From Pseudogymnoascus verrucosus (Eukaryota): DNA of 64,000 bases. The notes under the pieces were generated by a model. The model did not search any database. It was not told the origin of the DNA and saw only the letters and a program-made list of their open reading frames with translations. The first letter of the stretch is position 1, and every line of letters begins with the position of its first letter. Shown here piece by piece: positions 9,586 to 12,518 of the stretch. The stretch is taken from NCBI GenBank assembly GCA_001662655.1, contig KV460259.1. The stretch is one strand, 5' to 3'. The position numbers and the translations under genes are program-made.

Positions 9586-10293
9586 CTAGACCTTAACATG
9601 GATATAGTTGAACGTGCTCTTGGGAACCGTGCGTGTGCCATAGGCCCTATAGTTTTTGTAGTTGTACTCCTCGATAGTCACCGTATTGCCAGAGACTTTA
9701 GTAACCCAAGCGACGTGTCCAGCAGACCCAGCATTGCTCTGCGCGATGCATCCCGGGACGGGCTTGTTATCTACACGGACGCCAGTCTTGCGCGCAGCCT
9801 CGTCCCAAGAATTGGCATTACCCCATGCAGCGCCCTTGTACTTGTTGTGGAAGTTGATACCGAGGCGCTCATTGATGCGCCAGGCAACAAAGCTGGTGCA
9901 TTGGCACTTGAAATAGTTCCATTTGTCGGCAGGGCCGCACTGGCTCTTGTACGGGTAATCGTTCGTGACGGGGCCGGGGATCTTGCCGCTGCTGCCACCG
10001 CCACCGGTGCCGCCGCACTTGGGCTTCACGTACCCGTTGGTGCCGGTCTTGACGTAGTAGTCGGCGACGTAGCAGCCGTCGGTGGTTTTGTCCCAGATGC
10101 TGTTTCCGCTGACGACGGGGCCTTCGCTTTGGCAGCTGATTGTGACGCTGTCGCCTTTCTTGTAGGTTTTCTTCACGGCGTAGCTGGTGCCGGGGCCGGA
10201 GCGACAGTTGACGGTTGTGCCGGTGATGGGGTAGGCGAGGGTGCCTGTTGATAGAAATGCTGCGGTGCAGGCGACGAGACTGAGGAGCTTCAT
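9586..10293 (-). CDS. Secreted SH3-like cell-wall-binding domain + CHAP domain protein (putative peptidoglycan amidase/endopeptidase)
   Basis: Intronless 235-aa ORF: signal peptide MKLLSLVACTAAFLSTGTLA; SH3b-like module VNCRSGPGTSY...IWDKTTDGCYVADYYVKTG; Gly linker; CHAP motifs QCTSFVAWR (Cys), WGNANSW, GHVAWV (His), IEEYNY (Glu). Confidence 0.88.
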   Translation of the reverse strand: MKLLSLVACTAAFLSTGTLAYPITGTTVNCRSGPGTSYAVKKTYKKGDSVTISCQSEGPVVSGNSIWDKTTDGCYVADYYVKTGTNGYVKPKCGGTGGGGSSGKIPGPVTNDYPYKSQCGPADKWNYFKCQCTSFVAWRINERLGINFHNKYKGAAWGNANSWDEAARKTGVRVDNKPVPGCIAQSNAGSAGHVAWVTKVSGNTVTIEEYNYKNYRAYGTRTVPKSTFNYIHVKV

Positions 10294-10360
10294 TGTGGAT
10301 GAGGTGGAGAAGATGTGGTGGTGTATAATAAAGCTGGATTGAGGAAGATGGAAATGTTAT

Positions 10361-10437
10361 TGTGATTGTGGTTGTGAGTGTGAATGTGAATGTGAATGTG
10401 AATGTGAATGTGAATGTGAATGTGATTGTGGTTGTGA
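10361..10437. repeat. (TGAATG)n hexamer microsatellite in the 5' leader of the CHAP gene
   Basis: About 7 perfect TGAATG units flanked on both sides by TGTGATTGTGGTTGTGA. Confidence 0.9.
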
Positions 10438-11293
10438 CTGTTTAAAAAAGATGCCAATGGGGTTGTCGCGACCTCTTTATAATAGATGCATGAATAGCTG
10501 TGCCCGACATGAAGAAGAGATAGAAGAGAAAGATGAGGTTGAAAATACAGAAGAGACCGAAAAATGCCTTGCCGTCGCCTCCCCAAGACTTTAATTTTAC
10601 AACTTAATCCTTAACCCAGGCCTCTCATATCAATAGCTGCATAGTTTAATAGAAGAATGCCTTACCATATCCTCAGTAGCAATTTTATTTTTCAGCTTCA
10701 TCTCTAGACTTCGCCTCAACGGGAAGGTTTGTACAGAAAGAAATGGTTCAAGACAGCCAGCCGCACGTGTGAAATGGCCGAATCTTCTGCAACAAACGAC
10801 CGAAACCAGAACCAGAAGAGGGAGGGCGCACTACTATGCTATCCTTGGCGACGATTTCATTTCCGAGCTTATTCAATAGACTTCGCCTCAATGGCATGGC
10901 ACACAGTGTGTCTCCCGTTTCTTCAGCGCAGTGGTGAGAGGGGACGAAGAGGACGTTGTGGGTCTAGAACTATAGCTAGGGCGTTATTATTTCGTGGAAG
11001 GGACCGCGCCGATCTGTCAGTCAGACGGGAGAACACATTGTACGCATCAAGCTTATTTAGAGGGGCACTAACGGCGATTAAAAACCGATCTAACCTAAAG
11101 AAGTATGAATTACTGTAGATCCTACCCCATCAAACTCTATTTTAAGCAAAAAATGTGGCGCACGTGTAATTTGTGTGGTCGCAGTGGCAGTGCTAGAAGC
11201 TGGGGAGAACATAATACTCCGATCGCTTATGCGAATGATCACCATCGTCGGATTAGAATTAAGCCTGCGGCTAAACAAGCATGTATCCGTCGC

Positions 11294-11450
11294 GAGGCTT
11301 TTCGAGAAGCGATGTGGAAATATTCCCCGTTTGTGAGGCTTTCCGAGATGAGAAGCTGAACATTGCCCCTTTTCAAGGCTTTCAGGAACAGAAGCTCCCT
11401 GGACATGGCTCTATCACGAGGCTTTTCGAGACAGGAAGCTGTCCGAACAT
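11294..11450 (+). promoter_or_regulatory. Four-copy degenerate ~41-bp repeat in the shared CHAP/GH24 upstream region
   Basis: RAGGCTTTYCGAGA-like core followed by GAAGC starts at 11294, 11335, 11375, 11418. The repeat is seen directly; a regulatory role is inferred from position. Confidence 0.55.
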
Positions 11451-11624
11451 CAAGTACAAATAGACCACTACTTTCCGTTCATTCTCTCTATCATCAATCC
11501 AAAGCATCAACTCATCAGCTCATCCACTCACCAACTCATCTACTCATCTACTCATCCATCCATTAACTCATCAACTCAATCCCCTTTCAAGATATATCTT
11601 TATACTCTTACCACCTTATTCACC

Positions 11625-12518
11625 ATGAAGTTCACACTTTTTGCTGCTGCCGCCGCTCTGGCCTCTACCGCTGTTGCCTTCCCAATCACAGGCGACAGTG
11701 TCAACTGCCGCTCTGGGCCAGGCACAAGCTATGCTGTGAAGAAGTCCTACGCCAAGGGCCACGATGTTACGATAACCTGCCAGACTGGAGGAACCAGCGT
11801 CAGCGGAAACAGCATCTGGGATAAGACATCCGATGGCTGCTATGTTGCCGATTACTACGTCAAGACTGGCTCCAGTGGCTATGTCAAGCCGAAGTGCAGC
11901 ACTGGCGGAGGCAGCTGCTCTGCGCCTAAATCGAATGCGGCCACCGTCGACCTCATTGCTGAGTTTGAGGGTTTCGTCGCCAAAGTTTGTGAGTGACTCT
12001 TTTATGCAGGCATTCGTTTTCCGGGATGCTAACAAACTGGCAATAGACATTGATGCCACTGGCCACCCAACTGTCGGCTATGGCCATCTTTGCACCAAGT
12101 CAAAGTGCGCCGAGGTCGGATACCCGATCCCGCTTTCCAAGGCCAATGGCAAGAAGCTCCTCGCAACAGACATGGCTGTAAGTAGCCTTTAATGCTTTAA
12201 GACCTGGAGTATACTAATAACTCCCCTTTATAGAAAGCCGAGAAATGTGTTACCGCCATGCTCAACTCCAAGGCGGTACTCAACGCGAACCAGTACGGTG
12301 CTCTGGTTAGCTTGGCCTTCAACGTCGGGTGCGGGGCTGTTCAATCGTCTTCTATTGTCACACGTCTCAACAAGGGCGAGAAGGCTGCTACTGTCTACCC
12401 TCAGGAGTTCCCCAAGTGGGTTCACGGTGGTGGCAAGGTCCTTCCTGGTCTCGTTCGCCGCCGCAACGCTGAGGTTGCACTGGCCAAAAAGGCTGCTGGC
12501 AAGGCCCTCCCTTGCTAA
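11625..12518 (+). CDS. Secreted SH3-like cell-wall-binding domain + GH24 muramidase (phage-type lysozyme)
   Basis: Exons 11625-11988, 12047-12177, 12234-12518. Spliced product gives AEFEGFVAKVYIDATGHPTVGYGH (GH24 E-x8-D-x5-T catalytic motif), NQYGALVSLAFNVG and LPGLVRRRNAE; signal peptide and the same SH3-like module as the CHAP gene. Confidence 0.92.

Follow-up and report, generated by a model that had tools for sequence, protein, structure and literature searches.

Fungal muramidases are already under study, one enzyme at a time, for use in feed and against bacteria, and in many phage lysins a single chain holds two catalytic domains. Here, two divergently transcribed genes of the fungus Pseudogymnoascus verrucosus are described, which encode a predicted glycan cutter and a predicted peptide cutter of bacterial peptidoglycan. 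Both proteins share the same type of SH3-like domain for binding the cell wall (CWBD), combined with a GH24 domain in one case and with a CHAP domain in the other. The genes are located at positions 9586-12518 of a stretch of 64,000 nt of contig KV460259.1 (assembly GCA_001662655.1). In the following, this whole stretch is called the window. With a probability of roughly 0.65 we consider the pair to be a conserved two-gene unit for degrading the bacterial cell wall (peptidoglycan).

The closest described enzyme is the muramidase TsCWBD-GH24 of Trichophaea saccata (structures 8b2s and 8b2f; PMC10394673). It has the same signal peptide, two-disulfide SH3-like CWBD and GH24 domain as the protein of the GH24 gene in the window. 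Muramidase activity was shown for this homologue, and its CWBD binds triglycine via an arginine. In the model of Moroz et al. (2023) the CWBD guides peptidoglycan to the GH24 site, and feeding on dead bacteria is favoured as purpose (PMC10394673). Our GH24 protein matched 8b2s with an E-value of 3.2e-33 over residues 20-120, and the arginine contacting triglycine is conserved in the alignment of both window proteins. The GH24 subtypes differ, with WEGFV..PAPDPIG in T. saccata and FEGFV..VYIDATG in the window. TsCWBD-GH24 was described as a single enzyme; a neighbour, synergy or a gene cluster are absent from the text of the paper. The legend of Fig. 5 there gives a 'module-walking' set of fungal wall hydrolases, in which the CWBD occurs with GH184, GH73, C40, M23 and 'amidase'. 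As in the window, one module is combined with alternative peptidoglycan-cutting domains. Via its CWBD, the CHAP protein of the window matched the GH184 protein 8b2h (1.4e-31). The word CHAP is absent from the text of PMC10394673, and genomic arrangement is unaddressed there.

In Coprinopsis cinerea, live bacteria induce the GH24 enzymes LYS1-3, which are secreted and lyse Gram-positive cells (PMC6461984). Like the GH24 protein of the window they have an N-terminal accessory module, but this module is defensin-like instead of SH3-like. A CHAP partner is not reported in that paper, and the word 'amidase' does not occur. Regarding CHAP, staphylococcal and streptococcal hydrolases as well as phage lysins (2lrj, 2k3a, 5t1q, PcsB 4cgk, LysK CHAPK 4csh, phi812 9eum) show the same fold and the same Cys-His pair. 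In contrast to the window protein, which is eukaryotic and predicted to be secreted, these bacterial and phage enzymes possess other N-terminal targeting modules.

A first-pass annotation of this DNA, made from the sequence alone, knew of no description of the pair as a unit. In agreement with this, a full-text search of open-access literature, which covers neither papers outside open access nor the patents that Moroz et al. cite, gave no description of a CHAP/GH24 pair. No literature mention was found for the orthologue identifiers MYCTH_2085328, THITE_2171711, CTHT_0004320 and FOMG_17799 either. Both enzyme families and the CWBD are known, and among CWBD-GH24 muramidases the GH24 gene is in no way unusual. 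What appears to be new is that the pairing is conserved, that the shared module has been homogenised and that there is a precedent in actinobacteria.

Two predicted secreted hydrolases with a common binding module

The first-pass annotation reported two divergent genes about 1.33 kb apart, each with a signal peptide, the same SH3-like module and intact catalytic residues. This observation was confirmed, and its interpretation was partly supported. The CHAP gene (P0001) occupies positions 9586-10293 on the minus strand as a single exon of 235 codons plus stop. The GH24 gene lies on the plus strand at 11625-12518 and comprises the exons 11625-11988, 12047-12177 and 12234-12518, encoding 259 amino acids plus stop. 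Between the two start codons there are 1331 bp.

In the CHAP protein, a hydrophobic leader (amino acids 1-20; 10234-10293, minus strand) is the predicted signal peptide. It is followed by the CWBD (10015-10233), which was matched by 8b2g (1.9e-28) and 8b2f (1.1e-20), and by the catalytic domain (peptidase C51 in MEROPS; amino acids 124-211; 9661-9924). With 65 bits against a Pfam cut-off of 26 (PF05257, E 9.2e-18) the latter was assigned to the CHAP family. Cys132, His193, Glu209 and Asn211 were unchanged across 17 aligned sequences; we take their catalytic roles to follow the usual order of CHAP motifs. The AlphaFold model of the protein has a mean predicted local distance difference test value (pLDDT) of 78. 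In its C-terminal half the model has the papain-like CHAP fold and can be superposed on CHAP hydrolases of staphylococci, streptococci and phages, with Foldseek probabilities of 1.00 to 2lrj, 9eum, 5t1q, 2k3a, 4cgk and 4csh. The CWBD superposes on 8b2g with a template modelling (TM) score of 0.95 and a root-mean-square deviation of 0.9 Å. Based on these similarities, the CHAP protein probably cuts an amide or peptide bond of peptidoglycan. The window's CHAP gene has no intron. In six metagenome loci (L031, L032, L033, L035, L036 and L042) the tblastn match of this gene was broken near residue 131-135, which suggests an intron.

It is improbable that the CHAP protein acts on another amide substrate or on the fungus's own wall, so that the pair would not be a system for wall lysis by two cuts. 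Amidases that act on substrates other than peptidoglycan do belong to the CHAP superfamily; one of them, the E. coli glutathionylspermidine amidase, was found among the weak fold matches (ranks 27-43), and a characterised or assayed fungal CHAP enzyme was not found in the literature. However, the best matches in fold and sequence are all peptidoglycan hydrolases (staphylococcal SsaA/Sle1-type, PcsB and phage lysins). Furthermore, the domain is fused to a module that binds a peptide of the peptidoglycan type, as shown for the T. saccata CWBD, and its nearest bacterial kin are secreted actinobacterial SH3-CHAP proteins encoded beside an NlpC/P60 wall peptidase.

The GH24 protein starts with a leader as well, and its CWBD (11679-11897, plus strand) was matched by 8b2g (1.4e-33) and 8b2s. 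The phage-lysozyme-type catalytic domain (11934-12515) is split by both introns. These are 58 and 56 nt long, begin with GT, end with AG and contain the fungal branch sites CTAAC/CTAAT. The Phage_lysozyme profile (PF00959, cut-off 22.3 bits) was found in exon 3 with 87.4 bits (1.2e-24) and in exon 2 with 22.6 bits (1.4e-4), and full-length orthologues are tiled by the three exon pieces in the alignment. The motif E-x8-D-x5-T is intact and spans the junction of exons 1 and 2. Its Glu, Asp and Thr were kept in nine of nine full-length fungal GH24 sequences (alignment A2), and their spacing is that of T4 lysozyme. The protein is thus likely to be a muramidase that would cut the bond between N-acetylmuramic acid (MurNAc) and N-acetylglucosamine (GlcNAc). 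Trees and alignment A2 divide fungal CWBD-GH24 proteins into two well-supported subtypes, both of which occur in CHAP/GH24 pairs. WEGFV..PAPDPIG was found in T. saccata, Trichoderma, Kickxellales and the metagenome loci L001 and L017, in the latter two without introns. The other, FEGFV..VY.DATG, is present in the window, in Pseudogymnoascus and in Sordariales.

For both proteins the predicted cleavage of the signal peptide after the leader fits the alignment with the solved homologues. The mature N-terminus of the crystal chains aligns at residue 21 of the CHAP protein (8b2g and 8b2h), directly after its leader, and at residue 19 of the GH24 protein, just past the hydrophobic stretch. The N-terminal modules themselves matched the solved fungal SH3-like CWBDs 8b2g, 8b2f, 8b2s and 8b2h with E-values from 1e-20 to 1e-33, and they are 79.5% identical to each other. 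C30, R31, C54, C74 and C93 were invariant in 17 sequences of the CHAP protein, and the GH24 protein has them as well. These comprise the four cysteines (two disulfides) and the ligand-contacting arginine after the first cysteine, which characterise the CWBD according to the Fig. 3 legend of PMC10394673. Of the three Pfam families suggested by the first-pass annotation for a hidden Markov model search, CHAP and Phage_lysozyme could be verified, but SH3_3 (PF08239) could not, as its scores of 20.1 and 21.4 bits for the two modules lie below the Pfam cut-off of 27. Judged by sequence, the module is a divergent relative of SH3b and best classed as a fungal CWBD. Within the 64 kb of the window there are no CWBD genes other than these two, and no other wall hydrolase was found.

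From these domains the following mode of action can be proposed. Both proteins would be secreted, and the shared CWBD would attach them to the wall via its peptide portion. Subsequently, the MurNAc-GlcNAc glycan bond would be cut by the GH24 domain, and by the CHAP domain an amide or peptide bond, either MurNAc-L-Ala or one in the stem or cross-bridge. With both the glycan and the peptide network severed, the wall should fall apart sooner than after either cut alone. The purpose could be antagonism against bacteria, feeding on bacteria, or both. Given what is known of the chemistry of these families, joint action on the two wall networks can reasonably be expected; secretion, substrate, synergy, co-regulation and ecological role are likewise only inferred.

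Conservation of the pairing

The occurrence of the pair was examined in metagenome contigs of JGI, which were scanned with an SH3-CHAP alignment and yielded 80 loci. The SH3-CHAP architecture was present in 34 of them. Four of these are high-GC actinobacterial contigs, leaving 30 fungal-type loci. Ten of the 30 (10 of 80 overall) carry an SH3-GH24 gene head-to-head upstream, with spacers of 1.5-3.9 kb. At two further loci (L002 and L028) a divergent CWBD fragment is truncated at the contig end. A locus was regarded as informative if the partner was present or if at least 2.6 kb upstream were available without it; seven loci were too short. Comparison of the flanks assigned the ten paired loci to at least five independent contexts, which resemble neither each other nor the window. 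With tblastx no match was obtained between the flanks of the window and any of the 80 metagenome loci. The divergent orientation is the same in the window and in all ten loci. One fungal-type contig (L020) contains two SH3-CHAP genes in the same orientation about 9 kb apart (949-1857 and 9752-10657), without GH24 partner.

In named genomes, consecutive locus tags or accessions were evaluated, which indicate adjacency only and neither orientation nor distance. Consecutive CHAP and GH24 gene models were identified in 16 named species, which belong to the Leotiomycetes, Sordariales and Kickxellales. Two of them, Pseudogymnoascus sp. VKM F-4246 and F-4513, are the named species most closely related to the window. 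Ten belong to the Sordariales: Thermothielavioides terrestris (two assemblies), Chaetomium fimeti, Chaetomium strumarium, Apodospora peruviana, Corynascus similis, Corynascus sepedonium, Thermothelomyces fergusii, Thermocarpiscus australiensis, Achaetomium macrosporum and Podospora australis. Four are Kickxellales, namely Coemansia furcata, Coemansia thaxteri, Coemansia sp. RSA 1358 and Linderina pennispora (two assemblies). In Dactylonectria estremocensis the pair exists twice, on different contigs (P0012/P0202 and P0283/P0286). Exactly one accession separates the partners each time, and a gene model may thus have been annotated within the spacer. The linkage seen in the window recurs in these genomes and loci and is not unique to P. 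verrucosus.

In the tree of the CHAP catalytic domain, the fungal sequences form one clade (support 95) beside an actinobacterial clade (support 95). The paired loci are scattered over the fungal clade with unpaired copies interspersed. This distribution suggests an old pairing, followed by dispersal of copies.

Evolution of the binding module

The CWBD segments of the two divergent genes constitute an inverted repeat. In the window its arms of 225 nt (10012-10236 and 11676-11900) are about 76% complementary; the DNA identity of the CWBD segments is 75.5%, and third codon positions are 52.8% identical. An inverted repeat was seen in every paired locus examined, with 71-88% complementarity. Within the pairs of some species the CWBDs are far more alike, with 100% identity in T. 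fergusii and L. pennispora, 97% in C. similis and 93% in Ch. fimeti, whereas the best orthologues of these modules reach just 70-88%. In T. fergusii only the mature modules are identical, with unlike signal peptides in front of them; in L. pennispora it extends over the mature module and the signal peptide.

Modules linked to CHAP and modules linked to GH24 were not separated in the module tree. The labels change 15 times, compared to 15.5 times with shuffled labels. A single clade of CHAP-linked modules was rejected by the approximately unbiased (AU) test with p 0.004 and a log-likelihood difference of 77, for a group that was named after the tree had been seen. A single ancient duplication with plain divergence is therefore disfavoured, because it should have produced two groups. 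The simplest reading of these data would be an episodic process acting between the two repeat arms, either gene conversion or replacement of the module.

Bacterial relatives and origin

Prokaryotes were scanned with one genome for each species, which gave 80 bacterial loci. The closest full-length bacterial SH3-CHAP proteins belong to Intrasporangiaceae (Pedococcus and Phycicoccus), with 50% identity over residues 25-233. There, the SH3-CHAP gene stands head-to-head with an SH3-NlpC/P60 gene, as in Pedococcus ginsenosidimutans (L081:4846-6621), Phycicoccus sp. (L082) and the high-GC metagenome contigs L021-L024. Like the pair of the window, this pair is divergent and has a shared SH3 module, which is 74% identical within the pair. 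Unlike the window, the partner is NlpC/P60 and not GH24, the spacer measures only about 160-470 bp, and the module contains one Cys pair instead of two. An SH3-GH24 gene beside a CHAP gene was found in none of the 80 bacterial loci. Thus, the divergent layout of two hydrolases with a shared SH3 module predates the fungi, and the combination of glycan and peptide cutter appears to be fungal. The fungal pair likely originated from an actinobacterial SH3-CHAP gene, and its binding module was likely joined to a GH24 domain in fungi. In the bacterial locus L088 a weak GH24-like match lies 4 kb from a CHAP gene without SH3 module. P0277 (513 amino acids, from public assemblies) unites CHAP, NlpC/P60 and SH3 in one chain and joins the activities that are split in the divergent pair of Intrasporangiaceae.

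Transcription, spacer and genomic setting

Transcripts were searched in assembled contigs of public runs. Run X1 stems from a relative with 95-99% identity and was identified as RNA solely by its spliced contig; parts that it does not cover are no sign of silence. One X1 contig of 843 nt covers the CHAP gene (9566-10343). A second one of 902 nt corresponds to 11619-11988, 12047-12177 and 12234-12589 and omits exactly the introns 11989-12046 and 12178-12233. In contrast, contigs of X4 and X6 run unbroken through introns and spacer, as DNA would. The X1 contigs show that both genes are transcribed in one sample, and the exact removal of the introns shows that the model of the GH24 gene is correct.

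Contamination by bacterial or phage DNA, or an artefact of assembly, was considered too, as bacteria and phages are the typical carriers of both catalytic families and the closest non-fungal SH3-CHAP proteins are actinobacterial. This explanation is excluded by splicing and flanks: two spliceosomal introns of the GH24 gene are removed in RNA, and the flanking genes are eukaryotic. Moreover, the GC content of the pair is 57% in a window of 51%, compared to 71-73% in the actinobacterial loci, and orthologues are annotated in dozens of fungal genomes. The neighbours are ordinary eukaryotic frames (1277-5929, 7656-8810, 15082-16554 and 24849-25682). The types represented are an Mcp5-type PH domain protein, a RING/CCCH zinc finger protein, a poly(ADP-ribose) glycohydrolase (PARG) and an Atg3-like autophagy enzyme.

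The spacer between the start codons (10294-11624, 1331 bp) presumably contains the promoter region or regions and the 5' untranslated regions; no X1 contig was found on 10344-11618. The element GAGGCTTTYCGAGA occurs three times at 11294-11431 (plus strand), 194-331 bp upstream of the GH24 start, and is a candidate cis-element. These are the only three matches in 64 kb, all in the spacer, against 0.01 expected. Several repeats were observed as well, two of which are microsatellite-like and adjoin the start codons. A hexanucleotide repeat of the (GTGAAT)n type at 10348-10441 lies 55-148 bp upstream of the CHAP start, and the X1 mRNA contig stops at its edge (10343). Just upstream of the GH24 start, at 11491-11586, there is a CT-rich repeat with a period of 8 nt. 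In related strains 32 nt of it are missing (11510-11541, judged by the DNA contigs of X4 and X6), and its length thus varies among strains. In the middle of the spacer, a direct repeat of 60 nt (10668-10727 and 10840-10899) with 72% identity has the common core TAGACTTCGCCTCAAYGG and is partly and weakly conserved in L003. Footprinting against the nearest metagenome relatives gave just two weak blocks, both with L003 at 65-69% identity.

Evaluation of the proposed two-gene unit

Several results weigh against a conserved functional unit. Eleven of the 21 informative fungal-type loci have no GH24 partner, and genes for major facilitator superfamily (MFS) transporters and GMC oxidoreductases are among their upstream neighbours. 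In five Trichoderma (T. reesei, T. sp. CBMAI-0711, T. longibrachiatum, T. aggressivum and T. virens) both genes are kept on different scaffolds or with distant tags, and hence linkage is dispensable in this genus. In Coemansia spiralis the CHAP and GH24 genes are at least 16 gene models apart. The pairing is therefore not universal. Furthermore, the trees of the two catalytic domains agree only in part: the GH24 domain of the window falls together with Pseudogymnoascus (support 99), its CHAP domain does not. Regarding the evolution of the module, recent gene conversion in the window was tried as an explanation and ruled out by the low identity at third codon positions.

A single bidirectional promoter, as assumed in the first-pass annotation, is unsupported, because the spacers of the window and the paired loci are long (1.3-3.9 kb), 8-mer counting revealed no 8-mer common to more than six of nine spacers, and the triple motif of the window is missing from all 160 fetched loci. 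Expression was seen as contigs of one run and one condition of a relative, which informs on presence but not on level or induction. The comparison with a bifunctional lysin split into two genes found no backing either. Among 36 homologues of 413-2000 amino acids, none combined PF05257 and PF00959, although this is weak evidence.

Some of these results would also be expected if the pair were the relic of a local inverted duplication. In that case the 5' part encoding the CWBD would have been duplicated in inverted orientation and joined to a second catalytic domain; adjacency would be due to proximity, function and regulation would be independent, and conversion would be neutral. The unlinked genes of Trichoderma, the eleven of 21 informative metagenome loci without partner and the lack of a cis-motif common across lineages agree with such an origin, and gene conversion between close inverted repeats can occur without selection. 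However, adjacency has been kept in three fungal classes or orders and two phyla amid differing surroundings, pairs were found with both GH24 subtypes, and both mRNAs occurred in the same small RNA run. A mere relic is thus rather unlikely in our opinion, and the conserved unit for degradation of bacterial walls is preferred.

A more far-reaching version of the conserved unit is possible, although the odds are against it. The locus could be a lysin cassette that matches itself. Recurrent conversion across the inverted CWBD repeat flanking the promoter would copy changes in wall specificity from one gene to the other, so that glycan and peptide cutter share one wall target. The cassette would descend from head-to-head SH3 hydrolases of actinobacteria and would have been retained, perhaps also transferred, as one unit across distant fungal phyla (Ascomycota and Kickxellomycotina).

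A natural glycan cutter and peptide cutter with matched targeting would be a ready-made candidate for a synergistic enzyme combination, and synergy and co-targeting are testable predictions from the pair. Fungal antibacterial enzymes would be tied to a specific actinobacterial source with a similar head-to-head layout. If the two-gene unit is true, it is a rare conserved functional gene pair of fungi outside metabolism and a tractable case in which concerted evolution of a common domain keeps two effectors on one target.

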